Of a stretch of DNA of 64,000 nucleotides, positions 4,911-63,216 are shown piece after piece (position 1 is the stretch's first letter; every line of letters begins with the position of its first letter). The notes under the pieces were generated by a model, which had not been told where the DNA came from, ran no database searches, and saw only the letters and a program-made list of their open reading frames with translations. Origin of the DNA: a virus (lineage: Duplodnaviria; Heunggongvirae; Uroviricota; Caudoviricetes); the IMG/VR virus record IMGVR_UViG_2740892441_000001; one strand, 5' to 3'. The position numbers and the translations under genes were made by a program.

Positions 4911-5089
4911 GTATGGACCGAAGGCTGACCGTAGGGGTGTTACGGGGGATAAAATCAGTAGTTGAATAAATACGAAAAAGGAGGCGACACCCCTCCTTCC
5001 CTCCCCACTTATACATACCTGGCTTCTTCGCTATGCATGTTGTGTTTTCTTCGTGTTTTATCTGTTTCAACCTCTCTATAGGCGTTAAT

Positions 5090-5500
5090 GCTCACTCCTT
5101 CCAGAACGTTCTATACGGCAACTATTTCTGTTGGTGAATTGGGTGTGTTGTTTTCTCTGTCGGTGTATGTGGTTTCGTTCGTTTTGCGGTGGTTCTTCTA
5201 TAGGGTGTTCTCGTCGTTTTGGTGATTGTTCTTCTCCGTCTATGGAGTAATGGCAGGTGGGCGATTCCTTTCGTTATTGTGTTTGAGTTGTTTGTCTGGA
5301 GTGCGTGAAGGGCTTTTGTAGTTATTCGTGTATTGGGTAATGGCGTTTCCCGTGATTGTTCTGTTTCGTGTCTTTTGGGATTGAAGAATCCTTGCGGTAA
5401 CAGGCTTCGTTGGGGTTTCAGTGATTCTGGTGTTTCTTCGCTGTTTGGGTAATGGCGTGTCGTGGGTATCGCGCGTATGAATGTTTTCGGATTGCCTGTG
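5090..5500. repeat. G+T-rich low-complexity tract (plus strand), ORF-free
   Basis: Extreme strand compositional skew; the only ORFs are low-complexity minus-strand artefacts. Confidence 0.45.
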
Positions 5501-5504
5501 AAAG

Positions 5505-5590
5505 TTAGGTTGGTTGTCCGGTAGCCTGGGAAGAAGAGGTGGGTCTTTTCGGTAGCCTGCCATAAAGAGGTTGGTTGTTTTTGGGAATGG
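5505..5590. repeat. second copy of the ~80 bp repeat element seen at 1845-1932
   Basis: Alignable by eye to 1845-1932. Confidence 0.4.
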
Positions 5591-5980
5591 CATATGCGTT
5601 ATTTAGTTGTTTTGTTATGCCTGAAAATAAGTTGTTTATATGGTTATGTAACGCAACGGGAACGATTTTGAGCGTGTGTTTTTGTTGGTAGTGTGTTGGG
5701 TCGTCTGTGGTGAAAATTGGACGCTGTGGCGCTGTCTGCTGCGTAGGATTGCGGGTATAAGAAGTAATGTGTGAAAACGTCAATTTTTTAGACCAAATCG
5801 GGTGAAAGCGTTGACGTTTCGTTGATCTGTTATTCAGTTGTTTTCTTGTTTGTATAAACAACTATAACCTATTGATATTTAAGGGTGTGATTGCAGGTAT
5901 GGAAGGGGAGTAGTGGCGATCAACGGATTCTTATAGAAAAGAATCAAATTGTGACCGCCATTATCAATAAGTTGCAACCG

Positions 5981-6550
5981 TTAGTTGTTCAGATAAACAT
6001 TTGGAACACGGACGTAGAAGTTCCTGTCACCGGTAAGTTCCAGAGTAATGTTAATGTCATTACCATTGTCTAGTGTAGCCGTTGCTCTATAGAACTTATC
6101 CGTCACCTTGTCCTCTATTGTCACCTTCATACATTTTGGTGCAGTCGAACCGTTATTCTCTTTCAGAATAGTTGTCACGAGAGGGCAGGCTGCTTCTTCA
6201 AGAGCAACCTCGTCCTTGTGTGGGATGCCGATGAAGATAATCCAAGCCAGCGACGCAACGATTATGATAAATGGCACTCTGCTGCCTTTTGTAATAGTCG
6301 CGCGCTTCCAGAGATAGACAGGCAGGAGGAATACCCCCCATAGAATTGAAGGTGGTTCACAGCCAGACTCCGATAGAGCCATTCTGTCAGCTACTAACAA
6401 ACCGATGGTAGTTACACCCCCAATTATAATAGCGTAATTGGTATACTCTTCCGGCAATACTCCAAAGAAGAAAGGCATGAACGCTAGAATCCACGCATAA
6501 ATGTTATTCAGAGGTTTTGTTTGTTGGTTCTGGGTTTCCATCACATCCAT
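5981..6550 (-). CDS. hypothetical membrane protein (several hydrophobic segments)
   Basis: 189 aa with multiple hydrophobic stretches. Confidence 0.5.
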   Translation of the reverse strand: MDVMETQNQQTKPLNNIYAWILAFMPFFFGVLPEEYTNYAIIIGGVTTIGLLVADRMALSESGCEPPSILWGVFLLPVYLWKRATITKGSRVPFIIIVASLAWIIFIGIPHKDEVALEEAACPLVTTILKENNGSTAPKCMKVTIEDKVTDKFYRATATLDNGNDINITLELTGDRNFYVRVPNVYLNN

Positions 6551-7385: not shown

Positions 7386-9419
7386 TTACTTAACCTGGTG
7401 GCCAGGTTTAGCACCAGCATCCGGGCTTAACAGGAAGATGTCTTTCCCGCCGGGGCCAGCAGCCATCACCATGCCTTCGGAGATACCGAAACGCATTTTA
7501 CGCGGAGCCAGGTTAGCCACCATAATGGTGTGACGGCCAATCAGTGCCTGTGGGTCTGGATAAGCGGAACGGATGCCTGAGAAGACATTGCGTTTTTCAC
7601 CGCCGAGATCCAGCGTCAGGCGCAGCAGTTTGTCAGAACCTTCAACAAAGTCTGCGTTTTCGATCAGCGCCACGCGCAGGTCAACTTTGGCAAAGTCGTC
7701 AAAGGTGATGGTTTCCTGAATCGGGTCGTCTGCCAGCGGGCCAGTAACTGGCGCGGCAGTAGCTTTCACTTCTTCTTTAGACGCTTCCACCAATGCTTCC
7801 ACCTGTTTCATGTCGATACGGTTATACAGTGCTTTGAACGGATTCACTTTATGGCCCAGCAGCGGTTGCTGGATACCATCCCAGGTCAGTTCTGTATTCA
7901 GGAATGCTTCTGCACGTTCAGTCAGTTTCGGCAGTACCGGCTTCAGGTACGTCATCAGCACGCGGAACAGGTTAATGCCCATAGAGCAAATCGCCTGCAG
8001 ATCGGCATCGCGTCCTTCCTGCTTCGCCACCACCCACGGAGCCTGTTCATCGACATAGCGGTTAGCCAGGTCAGCCAATGCCATGATTTCACGGATAGCT
8101 TTACCAAATTCGCGGCTTTCCCATGCTTCGCCAATCACTTCAGCGGCATCAGTAAAGGTTTTGTACAGTTGCGAGTCAGCCAGTTCGCTTGCCAGCACGC
8201 CGTCAAAACGCTTGTTGATAAAGCCTGCATTACGGGAGGCCAGGTTAACCACTTTGTTCACGATATCGGCATTCACGCGCTGAACGAAATCCTCCAGGTT
8301 GAGATCGATATCATCAATGCGCGAAGAGAGTTTCGCAGTGTAGTAGTAACGCAGGCTGTCGGCGTCAAAATGATTCATCCAGGTGCTGGCTTTAATAAAG
8401 GTGCCGCGAGACTTGGACATCTTCGCGCCGTTCACCGTCACATAGCCGTGAACAAACAGGTTGGTCGGCTTGCGGAAGTTGCTGCCTTCCAGCATGGCAG
8501 GCCAGAACAGGCTGTGGAAGTAAACGATATCTTTACCGATGAAGTGGTACAGCTCGGCGGTGGAGTCTTTCTTCCAGTATTCATCGAAGCTGGTAGTGTC
8601 GCCGCGCTTGTCGCACAGATTCTTGAAGGAACCCATGTAGCCAATCGGTGCGTCCAGCCAGACGTAGAAATATTTACCCGGCGCGTTCGGAATTTCAAAA
8701 CCGAAGTAAGGTGCGTCGCGGGAGATATCCCACTGTTGCAGACCAGATTCAAACCACTCCTGCATTTTGTTTGCCACCTGCTCCTGCAACGCACCGCTGC
8801 GGGTCCATGCCTGCAACATTTCGCTGAAAGAGGGCAGATCAAAGAAGAAGTGTTCAGAATCACGCATTACCGGCGTAGCGCCAGAAACTACCGATTTCGG
8901 CTCAATCAGTTCAGTCGGGCTGTAGGTCGCGCCGCAAACTTCACAGTTATCGCCGTATTGATCTGGCGCTTTACATTTCGGACAGGTGCCTTTCACAAAA
9001 CGATCCGGCAGGAACATGCCTTTTTCCGGGTCGTACAACTGAGAGATAGTGCGGTTTTTAATAAAACCGTTCTCTTTCAGGCGAGTATAGATAAGCTCAG
9101 ACAGCTGGCGGTTCTCTTCGCTGTGCGTCGAGTGATAGTTGTCATAGCTGATGTTAAAGCCTGCGAAATCAGTCTGGTGTTCCTGGCTCATTTCGCCAAT
9201 CATCTGTTCCGGTGTGATACCAAGCTGCTGTGCTTTCAGCATGATCGGCGTACCGTGGGCATCGTCGGCGCAGATGAAGTTGACCTCGTGGCCGCGCATT
9301 CGCTGGTAACGGACCCAGACATCAGCCTGGATGTGCTCCAGCATATGGCCGAGGTGGATTGAGCCGTTAGCGTACGGCAGCGCGCACGTCACCAGAATTT
9401 TCTTCGCGACTTGGGTCAT
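7386..9419 (-). CDS. metG: methionyl-tRNA synthetase
   Basis: 677 aa translation matches E. coli MetG along its length as recalled from memory ([31 protein letters not shown]...KPGHQVK); start set at the MTQVAKK ATG, upstream extension of the track ORF judged spurious. Confidence 0.95.
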
Positions 9420-9576
9420 AGTAGGCATTACTTCTTTGTAGTGAAAAGGGGCTTGATAGTAACAAAATGGCCTTATGTCTGCCATGTGATAACAGCATTT
9501 CTCATAAATGATTAAATGTCGTAGCTGGAGTACACTACAAGGCGACAATTGCGCAAATTAAAATAAAGGAGACGGG

Positions 9577-10677
9577 ATGAGCGAGTCCAAATCGCCGGAT
9601 GCCCTGAGAGCAATGGTAGCCGGTACGCTGGCTAATTTTCAGCACCCAACCCTGAAGCACAACCTGACTACGCTTAAAGCGTTACACCATGTTGCGTTGA
9701 TGGATGACACACTGCATGTCGAACTAATCATGCCTTTCGTGTGGAATAAGCCTTTTGAAGACCTGAAAGAGCAATGTAGTGGTGATCTGCTCCGTATCAC
9801 TGGCGCAAAGGCTATCGACTGGAAGCTGTCGTACAACATTGCCACGCTTAAGCGCGTCAAAAACCAACCAGGCATTAATGGCGTTAAGAACATCATCGCC
9901 GTCAGCTCAGGCAAGGGCGGTGTAGGCAAATCGTCCACAGCAGTAAACTTGGCACTGGCGTTGGCTGCTGAAGGTGCGAAAGTTGGTATTTTGGATGCCG
10001 ATATCTACGGTCCATCAATTCCAACCATGCTGGGTGCGGAAAACCAACGTCCAACCTCACCGGACGGTACTCACATGGCACCTATCATGTCTCATGGCCT
10101 GGCAACCAACTCTATTGGTTATCTGGTCACCGACGACAATGCAATGGTGTGGCGTGGACCGATGGCCAGCAAGGCGTTAATGCAGATGTTGCAGGAAACT
10201 CTATGGCCTGATCTGGACTATCTCGTTCTCGATATGCCGCCGGGCACTGGTGATATTCAATTGACGCTGGCGCAGAACATTCCTGTAACTGGTGCTGTTG
10301 TGGTAACTACGCCGCAAGATATCGCGCTGATCGATGCGAAGAAAGGCATTGTGATGTTCGAAAAAGTCGAAGTGCCGGTACTGGGTATCGTCGAAAACAT
10401 GAGTGTGCATATTTGCAGTAACTGCGGTCATCACGAGCCAATTTTTGGCACCGGTGGCGCACAGAAGCTGGCCGAGAAATACAACACGCAGTTGTTAGGC
10501 CAAATGCCACTTCATATCTCTCTTCGTGAAGATCTGGATAACGGAACACCAACCGTTATTAGTCGTCCAGATAGCGAATTTACGGCTATTTATCGTGACC
10601 TCGCAGATCGCGTTGCTGCCCAAATGTATTGGCAAGGTGAAGTAATACCTGGCGAAATCGCATTCCGCGCAGTGTGA
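9577..10677 (+). CDS. apbC: Fe-S cluster carrier ATPase ApbC/Mrp
   Basis: 366 aa; strong match to enterobacterial Mrp/ApbC (P-loop SSGKGGVGKS, CSNCGHHEP motif); divergent from metG as in enterobacterial chromosomes. Confidence 0.93.
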   Translation: MSESKSPDALRAMVAGTLANFQHPTLKHNLTTLKALHHVALMDDTLHVELIMPFVWNKPFEDLKEQCSGDLLRITGAKAIDWKLSYNIATLKRVKNQPGINGVKNIIAVSSGKGGVGKSSTAVNLALALAAEGAKVGILDADIYGPSIPTMLGAENQRPTSPDGTHMAPIMSHGLATNSIGYLVTDDNAMVWRGPMASKALMQMLQETLWPDLDYLVLDMPPGTGDIQLTLAQNIPVTGAVVVTTPQDIALIDAKKGIVMFEKVEVPVLGIVENMSVHICSNCGHHEPIFGTGGAQKLAEKYNTQLLGQMPLHISLREDLDNGTPTVISRPDSEFTAIYRDLADRVAAQMYWQGEVIPGEIAFRAV

Positions 10678-10680
10678 TAA

Positions 10681-10704
10681 AAAGGTGGTGCAATGCACCA
10701 CCTA
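10681..10704 (-). terminator. hairpin GGTGGTGCA-ATG-CACCACC with U-run on minus strand (terminator for humD-like gene)
   Basis: Stem-loop followed by TTTTTT on minus strand; T-run overlaps the apbC stop, marking the right junction of the host-like block. Confidence 0.45.
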
Positions 10705-10714
10705 AACAGTTCTC

Positions 10715-11104
10715 CTACATCACAGGACAATCATCAAACTCGCCACTTCTTGCGTCGTTGATAATGTGAGTGATCACACCAAACACGGCATTGCTGCCCG
10801 TGCATCCATCATCATCCTTTGGCAATGCTTCCTTCTTACCAGTTCTTAAATCCTCCAGATGCTGACGTGGATACTTCCGGTATCTTTTTACGCGATATTC
10901 CCCATCCAGAGCACATACAAGAAGAGATCCATCAACAGGAGTGAGTGAGGAATCGACCACCAGCAATGCACCCTGCAATATTCCCTCACGATGATGACTA
11001 TCAGCCGCCCTCATGAAGTAGGTCGCTGAAGGATGTCTAATTATCTGCTGATCAAGAGAAATACGGCTCTCTGCATAATCCGCCGCAGGAGATGGGAAGC
11101 CCAT
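10715..11104 (-). CDS. humD: UmuD'-like S24-family protein lacking the cleavable N-terminal arm (HumD-like)
   Basis: Starts M-GFPSPAADY, aligned to Gly25 of E. coli UmuD (the RecA-mediated cleavage point); in-frame stop 5 codons upstream excludes an N-terminal arm; Ser and Lys of the S24 dyad retained; LexA box upstream. Confidence 0.7.
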   Translation of the reverse strand: MGFPSPAADYAESRISLDQQIIRHPSATYFMRAADSHHREGILQGALLVVDSSLTPVDGSLLVCALDGEYRVKRYRKYPRQHLEDLRTGKKEALPKDDDGCTGSNAVFGVITHIINDARSGEFDDCPVM

Positions 11105-11122
11105 AGCGTTTTCACCTCAAAA

Positions 11123-11142
11123 TACTGTTTATATATACAGTA
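11123..11142. promoter_or_regulatory. LexA (SOS) box TACTGTTTATATATACAGTA
   Basis: Near-perfect CTGT-N8-ACAG palindrome about 20-40 nt upstream of the humD-like start. Confidence 0.65.
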
Positions 11143-11208
11143 TACATGAAAGAAACCCACTTAGTGCAACCGATCGAGACTCTTCACCAAACAAAAATAT
11201 TTTTCTCA

Positions 11209-11258
11209 AATAAGAAAAGGCAGAAAACAAATTGTTTAAGGCCACTAGTTGTGGCCTT
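11209..11258 (-). promoter_or_regulatory. promoter-like motif plus hairpin (AAAAGGCAGAAAACAAATTGTTT + AAGGCCAC..GTGGCCTT)
   Basis: Same composite element as at 15399-15441. Confidence 0.35.
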
Positions 11259-11274
11259 AATGGGGGAGGGGTGC

Positions 11275-11799
11275 TTATTGGCTATGGCTAAAAATCAAAT
11301 GAGACACTTCATGTGGTTGTAGCTCGTCAAGATCCGGGGCCACAAAACCTTTTCCGAAAGACTTCACAAGTGATTCACCAGCCGCATCATTGTCACCTAT
11401 TACGCGAAAGTCATACGGCAGCATTGCCAGTTGACGACGTAATCCTGCTGAGAAAGTCGAACCTAACAGCGCCCACGAATTTCCGCCCGCGTTGTGCACT
11501 GCTGCACTTTTAAAAATCGACTCAGTTATCCATATCGGTCCATCTTTTAAAGGAAGATAGGTTCCCCATAGTAGCTGTCTGCCGTGCGCTCGTGTGAAAT
11601 ACCGGGCCATCTTCGGATTGCTATGCTGCTTAGGAGCGCCTGGTCTGTATGTCTGATACCCGGCCAACATCCCATCAAACCTGTATAGAGGGAACGTAAC
11701 AACTCCTTCGCTTTCATCGATCCACTGTCTATATGGATGCACATCATGGCGGTAGTTGCGAGTTAGCAAATGAGCTTCCAGCTTTCCAAATTTGGTCAT
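11275..11799 (-). CDS. Toprim-like domain protein (tentative)
   Basis: Start refined to ATG with GAGGGA RBS; conserved Glu and VIGDNDAAGE (DxD) motif resembling Toprim. Confidence 0.4.
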   Translation of the reverse strand: MTKFGKLEAHLLTRNYRHDVHPYRQWIDESEGVVTFPLYRFDGMLAGYQTYRPGAPKQHSNPKMARYFTRAHGRQLLWGTYLPLKDGPIWITESIFKSAAVHNAGGNSWALLGSTFSAGLRRQLAMLPYDFRVIGDNDAAGESLVKSFGKGFVAPDLDELQPHEVSHLIFSHSQ

Positions 11800-11812
11800 A
11801 ACTTCGCATCCC

Positions 11813-12667
11813 TCATAACACTTCCCATTTATCACCATATTTCTCCATAGCTCTTAGCCAGTAAACATGGCCACTAGGCATAGTGATGTGAGGCTCGCCA
11901 AACTCTTCTCCATGCACATCAAAGATGTCCCCAACAGAGAATTGGGGGATTTCTACGCCGTTTTCACCTATATGCGTAATTCGTATACGTTTCGGTTGAA
12001 ATTGTCCACCTTTGAGCGAGTTGTTCACTGCTCTGGCAATTTTCTCCCGCAATTGCTGCGTTACGTGGTACTGAACCGCAATATCCCGCAACTCGTTCAC
12101 CAGTTCTCTAATCTGGTGATCTTTAAGCTCATTATTTGGGTGATGGGCAACAACTCTGGTTAATTCACCCTTGTCTTTTGCTCTTACGTATGCAGCTCTT
12201 GTGCATTCGACCCATGTATTACCGCCTACATTAACTTCGTAGATTAGGCTGGACTTATCTGTCAATTCGGAACAAATACGGGCCGTGGTCTGGCAACTAG
12301 AGCATTCGCAGTTATCGCGGAAACCGTGGTCTACTGGCTGCGGTTTCACATCATCAACTTTTTCTACCCTATTGGAATTTAAATACTTCGAAGCCTTGCT
12401 ATGCCAATCGCTGGTTTTAGGATCTTGTCCATCCATCAAACGCCAGGCTTCAGCGATTAACTCATAACTAGTGACTGTAGCTTCCTGCGCATCACCAATA
12501 AGTCGTGTAATCTCTCTTTCAAGCCGACCGCCTAGCTCTGTTTTAGTGCAATGTTCTGACCAATCGCCAGCCTCAAGCAGCGCGAGAATGCTTAAAATAT
12601 CGTCCAATAGAACGGTAGTATTATCGACTTCCTTCTGAAACTCACCGGCTACTGATTTATGCATCAT
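11813..12667 (-). CDS. hypothetical protein with Cys cluster
   Basis: 284 aa ORF; CECSSC motif; operon with flanking genes. Confidence 0.5.
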   Translation of the reverse strand: MMHKSVAGEFQKEVDNTTVLLDDILSILALLEAGDWSEHCTKTELGGRLEREITRLIGDAQEATVTSYELIAEAWRLMDGQDPKTSDWHSKASKYLNSNRVEKVDDVKPQPVDHGFRDNCECSSCQTTARICSELTDKSSLIYEVNVGGNTWVECTRAAYVRAKDKGELTRVVAHHPNNELKDHQIRELVNELRDIAVQYHVTQQLREKIARAVNNSLKGGQFQPKRIRITHIGENGVEIPQFSVGDIFDVHGEEFGEPHITMPSGHVYWLRAMEKYGDKWEVL

Positions 12668-12966: not shown

Positions 12967-13612
12967 CTCCGCGCCGAAAGGTGCTTCCGGTATAGCGTGC
13001 GGAGCATATTAGCGGTTCAACCAGAGAGCTATCGAAATTCACCGAAATAAGCACGTTCTGGCCCTTTTCAGGCATTCGCTCACTACAGCTTATCCAACCA
13101 TCCGGAGTTACCGGATTGTTGCCAGCCTCATACGCGACCCTTATCCAGTGCATAAGCATTTCAGTACTTACACATCCACAATCAACATCAATTTTGTCAT
13201 GCTGCTGTTCCAGCCATTGCTCAAAAGTTAACTTGTAAGTTTGGCTTACAGGTTTGGCTTCCAGTTCTGCTATGTGATTTTTGGCTGATTCCAACTCAAT
13301 CGACAATTTTTCCAACTGCTCTTTATGATTTTTATATTCCTGATATGCGTGCCAAGACTGACCTTTGCGCACACTATCAGTGATATCAGCAACCTGCTCT
13401 GGTGTTAGCGTGGTCAGTGGCTGTGCTGGAAAAATCATCACTTGCCCGGCATCCCAATCAAAACCCGCCTGAATTGACTGAACCTCAACTGATGGTGTTG
13501 AACCGATGCGACCAGGCGAATGAACAACGATCGTTACATCCATATCGCGACGATGGCTGTGGTTGTTGGACAAAATACGATTCACCGACTCAGAAAATTT
13601 GGAAAATTTCAT
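12878..13612 (-). CDS. hypothetical protein with DUF551-like C-terminal motif (tentative)
   Basis: Start set at MKFSKF ATG forming an ATGA overlap with the upstream stop; C-terminal HWMPLPEPP-type motif. Confidence 0.45.
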
Positions 13613-13935
13613 GCTGACCCCTCTTTCTCTCCCCGGATAATTCTGTTGCACACATCCACACACTCGTCGCAGATGAAAACGGCGTCCCCAGCAATTAACT
13701 TTTTGACGGCGTACTGGGATTTGTTGCAGAAGCTGCAACAAAGTGTTCGCCTGGCTGATAAGGATGGAGCGCCAGATGTCAGCCGCTCCATATCGTTCTT
13801 GCGACGCAATATCACACGGCTGAACTCAACCAGTTTCTCCGGGGATATCTCCTCCTCCTCCGTAGCGAGCGTCTCTAGTCGTTCGAGTATGTGGAAGGCT
13901 TTTTCCTGGGTAATTGCAGAATGCGATGTGGTCAT
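13609..13935 (-). CDS. small protein with ClpX-type C4 zinc-binding domain
   Basis: C-terminal [31 protein letters not shown] closely resembles the ClpX N-terminal zinc-binding domain (LYCSFCGKSQHEVRKLIAG..YICDECVDLC, recalled from memory); no AAA+ module follows. Confidence 0.55.
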
Positions 13936-13936
13936 C

Positions 13937-14548
13937 TCACTCTCCTTTGATGCGAATGCCAGGGGCGCGTGGCACATTAACTTCCACGATGCGCACTGTT
14001 GGTTTGTACATCTCAATCGCTGTCAGCCAGTCAGCTCCTGTCATGCGCTTTTCCGCATCGCCATTAGTCCACTGAACCGGTACACCAATAGCCTTCATCG
14101 CGATTTCTATTTCCCCGGCAATGGCGCTTTTTCCGCAACCAGTAAAACCAGATACAACGACCAGAACTTCACCTTTGGCTGGTTTTATTTCCCGTGCTTC
14201 CAGTTCTGCAATGCGCTTACTTCCATCCGAGATAACGCCCTCGTAATACTCACGCTGCTCGTTGAGTTTTGATTTTGCCAACTCCAGTTGTTTTGTTAGT
14301 TCTGCAATACGACAAACATCGTTGATACGCGTTTCCTCTAATGCGTTGCTCTCATCCAGTAGCGCCAGCACGGTTTCTGGTCCGGCCAGAAATTTGAAGG
14401 CGTTGAGGGCATCAATATCAACACCGCTATCTTTAAGTTCCTGTTCGCTTATCAGATCATCATCAACTGGCAACATTAACAGGCGTTCCATTGCCGGAAT
14501 TGCACGCTCTGCCGCCTCACGCAGTGCCTGATAGTCAATCTTGCTCAC
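13937..14548 (-). CDS. hypothetical protein, paralogous module shared with 14545-14988, short Walker-A-like GFTGCGKS
   Basis: 203 aa; shares VLALLDE..LE.T.I..CRI.EL segment with the adjacent gene. Confidence 0.5.
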
Positions 14549-60458: not shown

Positions 60459-60845
60459 ATGTCTGATAACAAGATTGAATTTATAGAAAGTCGCTACGCT
60501 GCTTTTATCGCAGGGTTGATTGAATCCTCACCTATGAGCCAGGCCCAGATAGCCAAAACAATTGGGTATAAAAACGCCAACAACCTTTCTTTAATTAAAA
60601 GCGGCAAAATTCCTTTGCCTATCGATAAGGTTCGTCCGCTGGCGCTGGCACTGGGTATTGAGCCAAGTCGTCTTATGATGATGGTGCTGGAAGAACGCCA
60701 ACCCGAACTCGCAGCATTTTTATACAAAGAAGGCACTGCTCCTCTTAACGAGGACGAAAAACAGGTTCTTGCTGCATATAACGAGCGATTCGGTAAAGAG
60801 AAAGGCGCATCACAAAAGGTTGTTGAGGCCATAAAGTCTCTATGA
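60459..60845 (+). CDS. XRE/Cro-CI-type HTH transcriptional regulator
   Basis: SQAQIAKTIGYKNANNLSLIKSGK helix-turn-helix; 128 aa. Confidence 0.65.
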   Translation: MSDNKIEFIESRYAAFIAGLIESSPMSQAQIAKTIGYKNANNLSLIKSGKIPLPIDKVRPLALALGIEPSRLMMMVLEERQPELAAFLYKEGTAPLNEDEKQVLAAYNERFGKEKGASQKVVEAIKSL

Positions 60846-61943
60846 AAAATTTACACGAATAAGCTCTGTTGATAGACGATCTCCCTTAAATTTGTGGTCA
60901 ATTTCGTCTAAATCCGGTTGCTCTACGATTGATGCGATGTACGTCGAGAAACTTTCTAAGGCGTCTCGCATCTCGTCCATATAATCGTGCCGGTCGTAGA
61001 CCCGATCTATCCCCTCAAGACTGTGGTTCATGATTTTACGTGATACCTCCTGGCTTATGCCTAATGCTGGGAAGTAACTACGCGCAGTACGGCGCAAATC
61101 TCGGGGTGTAAATGGCTCAAGCTCCATCAGTTCTGGTCGTTCCAGAATACGACGTAATGCCTGGGCTATTGCTACTTTAGACATAGGAAGGTCTTTCCCG
61201 ATTTTTTTATTCGAAGGCACGAGCCACTGGCTGTCTTTACCGTATTCGAACAACTCTTCAATGCATGTGCGCATTAATGTGCTTAAAGGCAGCGAATGCT
61301 CACGTGCTGACTTGTTTCTCTTGCCTTGATTCCAAACTCCACGCTTAAGATTGAACTCACTTTTTTTAGCCCGCAGTACTTCGTCAGGTCGTCTTGCTGA
61401 TACAAGACACAGCCTGGCCGCCCATTTTGTACCAGCGCACACATTGAAGTAGTCCCATACATTCCAGAACACCCATACCTCTGCGTCGGTCAGCTTCCGC
61501 TCGCGAGGCGTGGGCTTTGCGCCACCGGCAACTTTGTTTAGTGACATATCGTTTAACGGTGACACGTCTATCATCCCCTGGAAGGCGCACCAGCTAAGGA
61601 ACTGCTTCATCAGAGAGAAAACGCGGCGGCCCATAACAATTTTGCCATCCAGTATTAGTGGGTTGACCAGTTGGTTCACCATGAACCTATTAATGTCACT
61701 TACTTTTACATCGGCAATGTGCGGCAAAACATGTATCAAAATACAATGAACAGCGATCTCTGGCCGACGTCTTGTTATCAGCAGAGATAAGCGAGTGAAT
61801 AACATGAATGCGTCCGAGAATCTCATGTCATTGATAACCTGCGAGATCATAACGGCCTGCATTTGAGATGCTCTTTCGAGATACTCAATCGCTTCTTTTG
61901 AGGTGTTCTCCGCTGCGCGTGCTCTGTCAAAGCTATTTTTCAT
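60840..61943 (-). CDS. tyrosine recombinase/integrase
   Basis: C-terminal catalytic region SARRPDEV...HSLPLS...FTPRDLRRTARSYFP...NHS..GIDRVYDRHDY (R..K..H-R-H..Y pattern). Confidence 0.6.
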   Translation of the reverse strand: MKNSFDRARAAENTSKEAIEYLERASQMQAVMISQVINDMRFSDAFMLFTRLSLLITRRRPEIAVHCILIHVLPHIADVKVSDINRFMVNQLVNPLILDGKIVMGRRVFSLMKQFLSWCAFQGMIDVSPLNDMSLNKVAGGAKPTPRERKLTDAEVWVFWNVWDYFNVCAGTKWAARLCLVSARRPDEVLRAKKSEFNLKRGVWNQGKRNKSAREHSLPLSTLMRTCIEELFEYGKDSQWLVPSNKKIGKDLPMSKVAIAQALRRILERPELMELEPFTPRDLRRTARSYFPALGISQEVSRKIMNHSLEGIDRVYDRHDYMDEMRDALESFSTYIASIVEQPDLDEIDHKFKGDRLSTELIRVNFS

Positions 61944-61970
61944 ATGACAATCACCGAGTTACGCCGATGC

Positions 61971-61989
61971 ACTGTATAAGTAAACAGTA
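61971..61989. promoter_or_regulatory. LexA-box-like ACTGTATAAGTAAACAGTA upstream of the recombinase gene
   Basis: CTGT-N8-ACAG palindrome about 30-45 nt upstream of the start. Confidence 0.4.
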
Positions 61990-62968: not shown

Positions 62969-63055
62969 TGGCGGAGAGTAATGGAATCGAACCATCATCG
63001 CTTGCGCAATGGGACGGTTTTCAAGACCGCTTGAGCACCATGCTCTCTACTCTCC
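62969..63055 (-). tRNA. tRNA-Ser(TGA)
   Basis: Hand-folded: acceptor GGAGAGT/ACTCTCC, anticodon loop CTTGAAA, long variable arm, T-loop TTCGATT, encoded CCA; 87 nt. Confidence 0.7.
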
Positions 63056-63063
63056 AATTGTGT

Positions 63064-63139
63064 TGGTGCCGGTTAACGGATTCGAACCGCTGACATCCTG
63101 CTTACAAGGCAGGTGCTCTACCAACTGAGCTAAACCGGC
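63064..63139 (-). tRNA. tRNA-Thr(TGT)
   Basis: Hand-folded: acceptor GCCGGTT/AACCGGC, D-arm GCTC-AGTTGGTA-GAGC, anticodon loop CTTGTAA, T-loop TTCGAAT, encoded CCA; 76 nt. Confidence 0.8.
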
Positions 63140-63141
63140 AT

Positions 63142-63216
63142 TGGCGATGGTGGGTGGATTCGAACCACCGACCAGTTGGTTAACAGCCAACTGCTCTACC
63201 GCTGAGCTACACCATC
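63142..63216 (-). tRNA. tRNA-Asn(GTT)
   Basis: Hand-folded: acceptor GATGGTG/CACCATC, anticodon loop CTGTTAA, T-arm GGTGG-TTCGAAT-CCACC, encoded CCA; 75 nt. Confidence 0.8.

Follow-up and report, generated by a model that had tools for sequence, protein, structure and literature searches.

Does the short minus-strand reading frame next to the metG-apbC genes of this element encode a UmuD-type protein that is already in processed form when it is made, is it placed under LexA control, and how would it act on an element in which no umuC was found? The gene, called humD here, was analyzed in the window, which is the whole stretch of 64,000 nucleotides under study, and in related loci and genomes. 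The gene and the features that define its start are as follows.

10715..11104, minus strand: humD coding sequence, 129 amino acids and stop codon
11113..11118, minus strand: Shine-Dalgarno-like GAGGTG, 8 nt upstream of the humD ATG, read from the sequence
11117..11119, minus strand: TGA stop at codon -5 of the humD frame, from translation
11129..11131, minus strand: TAA stop at codon -9 of the humD frame, within the LexA box, from translation

Start of the reading frame at the UmuD cleavage point

Translation gave a product with the N terminus MGFPSPAADY (M-G-F-P-S-P), preceded in the same frame by ...CILYI*TVF*GENA-M. With TGA at codon -5 and TAA at codon -9, a longer HumD precursor is impossible in this sequence. 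In the HMMER alignments, residue 2 of HumD was paired with residue 1 of the UmuD' chain 1umu_A and residues 2-116 with residues 25-136 of UmuD in 8gmt_B, and in tblastn, residues 25-139 of K-12 UmuD matched positions 11101..10748. As the HMMER and tblastn registers agree, Gly2 of HumD is the equivalent of UmuD Gly25, with which processed UmuD' begins. The earlier note had claimed that the frame begins exactly at this residue and that an in-frame stop five codons upstream leaves no room for an arm-encoding extension; both statements stand, and the frame is closed by a second stop as well.

The same start was shared by humD genes of several phage types, with ATG-Gly in 90 of the 91 loci collected from P1-like, SSU5-like, P2-like, and N15-like elements. 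Among the best 120 of 561 cluster representatives, nearly all had the M-GFPSP start and at least 87 were HumD-like proteins of 126-130 amino acids. The Shine-Dalgarno sequence was kept as GAGGT in P1-type and pLF82-type humD cassettes. A miscalled humD start was considered and rejected: the longer database entries (148-223 amino acids) are 5' extensions that keep the internal M-GFPSP and read through the SOS box or a neighboring reading frame.

Identity, predicted fold, and selection on humD

The protein scored 219.8 bits with the NCBIfam equivalog model NF051876, "HumD family translesion DNA polymerase" (cutoff, 120 bits), its residues 1-129 spanning profile positions 1-129 of 129. The NCBIfam UmuD subfamily model stayed under its cutoff (87 bits versus 110), and the Pfam domain Peptidase_S24 (PF00717) was found with 37.9 bits. 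The best sequence match among solved structures was UmuD' (1umu_A; E value, 6.7e-23), and the UmuD-RecA complex 8gmt_B was matched as well.

An AlphaFold2 model of HumD built from a shallow alignment, with close relatives only, reached a pLDDT of 50 and was discarded; the model from the deeper alignment had a pLDDT of 74. Its top Foldseek matches were UmuD' (1umu and 1ay9) and the UmuD-RecA complex 8gmt, with 1umu as the best match at a TM score of 0.77 normalized to the target. The predicted fold of HumD is the UmuD' type, that is, the fold of the S24 peptidase / LexA C-terminal domain.

Aligned with P1 HumD and with UmuD, the protein showed similarity to both, the match to UmuD starting at Gly25. 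From P1 humD, the gene of the window differed in 16% of nucleotides and 9% of residues, and the two proteins were 91% identical without gaps. The dN/dS ratio was 0.039 at a dS of 1.08 (Nei-Gojobori), which places humD under strong purifying selection. In the RefSeq annotation of related E. coli plasmids, the gene is named "HumD family translesion DNA polymerase". The gene of the window is very probably the P1 humD ortholog, borne by an SSU5/pLF82-type phage-plasmid as accessory cargo. The match to P1 humD and the guess that the cargo is probably of a known type, both made from a first reading of the sequence, were thus well founded: the gene type is already known through the P1 description, its own NCBI family model, and its RefSeq name.

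A decaying, 5'-truncated remnant of umuDC without function would, like humD, lack both the N-terminal arm and an umuC partner. Such a reading is at odds with the dN/dS of 0.039, with an ATG-Gly start that several phage types share (90 of 91 loci), with the conserved Shine-Dalgarno sequence and LexA box, and with the length of 126-130 amino acids in at least 87 of the best 120 of 561 representatives. These data on selection and conservation effectively refute it.

LexA box and candidate promoter

Two overlapping features were located upstream of the humD start.

11123..11142, unstranded: LexA (SOS) box TACTGTTTATATATACAGTA, 18 nt from the ATG, found by consensus scan
11139..11169, minus strand: candidate sigma-70 promoter, with TTGCAC at 11164..11169, a 19-nt spacer, and TATACT at 11139..11144

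The SOS box had been described as near-perfect and just upstream of humD, and it indeed departs from TACTG(TA)5CAGTA at a single base, and no other site in the 64 kb comes within three mismatches of the LexA consensus, the chance expectation from 100 shuffles being 0.00. On the coding strand the box reads TACTGTATATATAAACAGTA, one base apart from the umuDC box TACTGTATATAAAAACAGTA, which was taken from E. coli K-12 (NC_000913). In the clade defined by at least 90% identity, CTGT-N8-ACAG was present 18-21 nt 5' of the humD ATG in every one of 45 loci; the arms of the box were near-invariant, and the central spacer varied, even between loci with identical proteins. The site has the form of a LexA operator, and LexA binding and induction by DNA damage would be expected from the literature on P1 HumD.

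In five of the loci (L012-L016), the encoded HumD is identical to that of the window and the LexA-box spacer and upstream flank are different, e.g., CTGTATGGATAAACAG and CTGTATGTGTATACAG; these differences point to recombination breakpoints right at the operator.

The TATACT hexamer extends into the start of the LexA box, and TTGCAC (or TTTCAC) and TATACT were kept 19 nt apart across cassettes with otherwise different flanks. Since no promoter was called in front of humD by a consensus scan and the hexamers are known from conservation only, the promoter is one that we infer, with a weak -35 hexamer and a 19-nt spacer.

A plus-strand reading frame of 58 amino acids (11146..11322), which begins 4 nt past the box, was considered as a divergent LexA-controlled gene. 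It was rejected because it has no Pfam match, crosses a terminator hairpin, and is broken by a 13-nt indel in PhiR41_1, and it is regarded as spurious.

A second LexA-like box, TACTGTTTACTTATACAGTG, was noted at 61970..61989, with four mismatches and intact CTGT and ACAG arms, about 27 nt 5' of an integrase-like reading frame of 367 amino acids (60840..61943, minus strand). In PhiR41_1, the same second box precedes the annotated integrase.

Carrier element and position of humD at a mosaic junction

The window belongs to an SSU5/pLF82-type phage-plasmid, with 93-98% identity to Cyrano (pLF82), PhiR41_1, and CMS-2020a, and is collinear with PhiR41_1 (complete, 108 kb). The same stretch was found on non-mobilizable plasmids of about 108-110 kb from E. 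coli and Shigella sonnei, and of 5426 complete E. coli genomes, 200 (about 3.7%) had the metG-apbC-humD arrangement on a plasmid. The element is a common E. coli/Shigella phage-plasmid lineage. No mention of humD, umuD, or metG was found in the phage-plasmid papers searched.

Two hairpins flank the humD cassette.

10683..10703, minus strand: G+C-rich hairpin with a T-run, between humD and apbC (37-nt spacer)
11236..11260, minus strand: terminator-like hairpin, after the toprim-domain gene at 11275..11838

Only metG and apbC (7386..10677) resembled the E. coli chromosome, at about 90%, and this similarity ended at the apbC stop codon at 10677. P1-like similarity, about 84-86% at the nucleotide level, started at the humD stop at 10715 and extended over 10716..~11172, from the coding sequence through the box to some 30 nt past it. 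Neither the E. coli chromosome nor P1 had a match to the 37-nt spacer that separates the convergent stops of apbC and humD. The placement of humD exactly at the right junction of the host-like block, as first proposed, can therefore be specified as 37 nt from the apbC stop.

The hairpin in the spacer is likely the terminator for humD and possibly also that for apbC on the other strand. The hairpin at 11236..11260 separates humD from the upstream operon, whose toprim-domain gene is named after the RefSeq annotation of related plasmids. From the extent of the P1-like similarity, the unmatched spacer, and the two hairpins, humD looks like a self-contained single-gene SOS unit at a mosaic junction.

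Several further features of the window were recorded. Intact metG (methionyl-tRNA synthetase) and apbC/mrp were captured exactly from stop codon to stop codon, and the metG-apbC pair is conserved in Cyrano, PhiR41_1, and CMS-2020a. At about 5100..5750, some 650 nt are G/T-rich on the plus strand and hold no reading frame of 150 amino acids or more; GC skew was +0.31 and AT skew -0.34 at positions 5001-6000, and no tandem repeats were found in the G/T-rich stretch. Adjacent tRNA genes for Ser(tga), Thr(tgt), and Asn(gtt) lie at 62969..63216 on the minus strand.

About 2.5 kb upstream of humD, within an ea22/eaA-like accessory block, a minus-strand reading frame of 135 amino acids (13609..14016) has a stand-alone C4 zinc finger of the ClpX type at its end (residues 93-128; PF06689; 56.9 bits). 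The N-domain of ClpX receives adaptors, UmuD among them, and a tie between this reading frame and humD would be pure speculation.

Proposed action of HumD with the UmuC of the host

No UmuC homolog was found by tblastn with K-12 UmuC in the 64-kb window, none was present in the entire 108-kb genome of PhiR41_1, and no umuC was located within 5 kb of humD in the 91 loci. As the element has no umuC, HumD would have to use the UmuC of the host.

The following course of events, as published for P1 HumD, is proposed as the most likely. In the undamaged cell, host LexA would occupy the box over the candidate -10 hexamer, 18 nt from the ATG, and repress humD. After DNA damage, RecA would be activated, LexA would cleave itself, and humD would be transcribed. 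HumD would be made directly in the shape of UmuD', without the N-terminal arm, and would, being born in this form, skip the slow RecA-dependent cleavage that delays the activation of UmuD. It would then dimerize and join host UmuC, together with RecA and ATP, in a Pol V-like translesion polymerase. The binding of LexA, the exact promoter, the dimerization, and the partnership with UmuC are proposed here by analogy with published P1 HumD.

P1 HumD reportedly takes the place of UmuD' in SOS mutagenesis and binds UmuC and RecA filaments, as is said to have been described by McLenigan et al. in 1999. The statements on P1 HumD function used here follow the GenBank note and citing papers. In the P1 GenBank record, humD carries the note "functionally complements E. 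coli UmuD'", and a LexA site is marked where the box of the window has its counterpart.

The predicted fold would also suit a decoy or regulator of activated RecA filaments that tunes SOS signaling or prophage induction, because folds of the LexA/UmuD type dock on RecA filaments, HumD retains this fold, and its top fold matches included the UmuD-RecA complex 8gmt. The back-to-back arrangement of humD with a homolog of dinI, whose product is a RecA modulator, in P2-like and N15-like phages fits such a role, and the second LexA-like box at 61970..61989 suggests a wider SOS response of the element. However, dinI is absent from the window and from PhiR41_1, the role of the 91%-identical P1 protein is, according to the sources named above, UmuD'-like mutagenesis, and no repressor-cleavage circuit was identified in this analysis. 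We consider a RecA-directed role very improbable and retain the partnership with host UmuC.

Protease dyad and acidic C-terminal tail

Ser36 and Lys73 of HumD align with Ser60 and Lys97 of UmuD, and the window protein has the motif ADSH where UmuD has GDSM. In the close HumD family, the Ser position was occupied by Ser in 59, Thr in 42, and Ala in 2 proteins. A wider comparison was made with cluster representatives at 50% identity, comprising 49 arm-bearing and 34 born-processed proteins. The arm-bearing representatives kept G58 (47 of 49), S60 (44 of 49), M61 (42 of 49), and K97 (44 of 49), and the born-processed ones had Ser60 in 4, Thr in 10, and Ala in 5 of 34, with Lys97 kept in 12 and replaced by Arg in 13 of 34; all these counts are approximate, as the representatives include fragments and low-quality translations. 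Judged from the alignments, born-processed relatives largely lack the dyad, as would be expected if self-cleavage is not needed any more, and Ser36 and Lys73 of the window protein are probably leftovers.

The C-terminal tail of HumD, INDARSGEFDDCPVM, comprises 14 residues (116-129), is acidic, and has no counterpart in UmuD. Its motif ND.R..EFDD.P (residues 116-127) was invariant or nearly so in the close family, and the tail was more conserved than much of the rest of the protein. This tail was present in roughly one-half of the distant representatives of the born-processed group and was missing in 46 of the 49 arm-bearing proteins. AlphaFold2 modeled the tail at low confidence (pLDDT, about 52).

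The model of HumD as a UmuD' mimic does not explain this conserved tail. The HumD type might be a separate lineage with a decaying protease site and a gained tail that binds a partner other than those of UmuD', its mechanism being unlike that of UmuD'; we regard this as rather unlikely. In that case, the partners could be, for instance, the Pol III alpha-like/epsilon-like subunits of the phage-plasmid itself, the beta clamp, or a protease adaptor.

A related explanation is that HumD acts mainly via partners other than host UmuC, with the tail as an interaction module. HumD might modulate the Pol III alpha-like/epsilon-like replication proteins of the element itself, or it might heterodimerize with host UmuD and shift the UmuD/UmuD' checkpoint. 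E. coli UmuD and UmuD' contact Pol III subunits, and PhiR41_1 encodes Pol III alpha and epsilon subunits as well as a RecA-like protein; the motif ND.R..EFDD.P, near-invariant in the close family and rare in arm-bearing UmuD-type proteins, would suit a dedicated contact. The same tail, however, occurs in P1-like, P2-like, and N15-like phages, which may not have the replication genes of this phage-plasmid, and P1 HumD is reported in the GenBank note to replace UmuD' with host UmuC. The low confidence of the tail prediction (pLDDT, about 52) also counts against this explanation. We hold such partners to be distinctly unlikely as the main route of action, and the UmuD'-like role with host UmuC is preferred.

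Significance of the locus

As a discovery, humD of the window matters little, since the gene type has been known from P1 since 1999 and is covered by a dedicated NCBI family model. Between P1-like and SSU5-like phage-plasmids, humD and its LexA box travel together as one cassette. By analogy with P1, about 3.7% of complete E. coli genomes may hold a pre-activated Pol V accessory subunit on a plasmid, and under DNA-damaging antibiotics HumD could allow error-prone synthesis to begin sooner. For the study of Pol V, modest leads are offered by the decay of the protease site and by the conserved tail.

Comparison with known systems

P1 HumD (humD, P1_gp103; J Bacteriol 181:7005) is also 129 amino acids long, 91% identical without gaps, and has the M-GFPSPAADY start and the C-terminal tail in common with HumD of the window. 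Its LexA box lies about 19-20 nt upstream, its ribosome-binding region is near-identical, and DNA homology between the two extends from the stop codon to about 30 nt past the box. The carriers differ, being an SSU5/pLF82-type phage-plasmid here and P1 there. In the window, humD is convergent with the captured apbC and preceded by a terminator and the toprim-domain gene; its P1 counterpart lies between phd-doc and the divergent lxr. Neither the P1 neighbors Lxr and Hot nor DinI were found in the window, and the annotated far-upstream PhumD promoter of P1 falls outside the DNA shared with it.

E. coli UmuD' (residues 25-139; 1UMU, 1AY9, and 1I4V) has the same fold, as predicted for HumD, and 42% identity from Gly25 on. 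The equivalents of Ser60 and Lys97 are present in both, and the LexA boxes are one base apart. UmuD' arises by RecA-dependent cleavage, whereas HumD is made short directly; the N-terminal arm with a Cys24-Gly25 type cleavage site and the umuC operon, which are features of UmuD proper, are absent in HumD. Further differences of the window protein from UmuD' are ADSH for GDSM, the additional 14-residue acidic tail, and an operon without umuC.

N15 gp26, phiKO2 gp23, and the P2-like, dinI-linked HumD belong to the born-processed family, with about 70% identity and the same start and tail, and are associated with a LexA box like humD of the window. These copies are paired back-to-back with a homolog of dinI or follow a small additional reading frame, in contrast to the window, which has no dinI. 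In loci L005-L011 and L052-L091, from P2-like prophages and N15-like linear phage-plasmids, the LexA box lies between humD and dinI. In some P2-like and N15-like loci, a reading frame of 80 amino acids directly precedes humD, and some database entries fuse its end to humD.

Like HumD, the UmuD homologs MucA, ImpA, RumA, and SamA of plasmids and ICEs are encoded on mobile elements, are SOS-regulated, and serve as accessory subunits of Y-family polymerases. They retain the cleavable arm, and a gene for a cognate UmuC-type polymerase accompanies them. The arm-bearing proteins of the representative set keep G-D-S-M and Lys.
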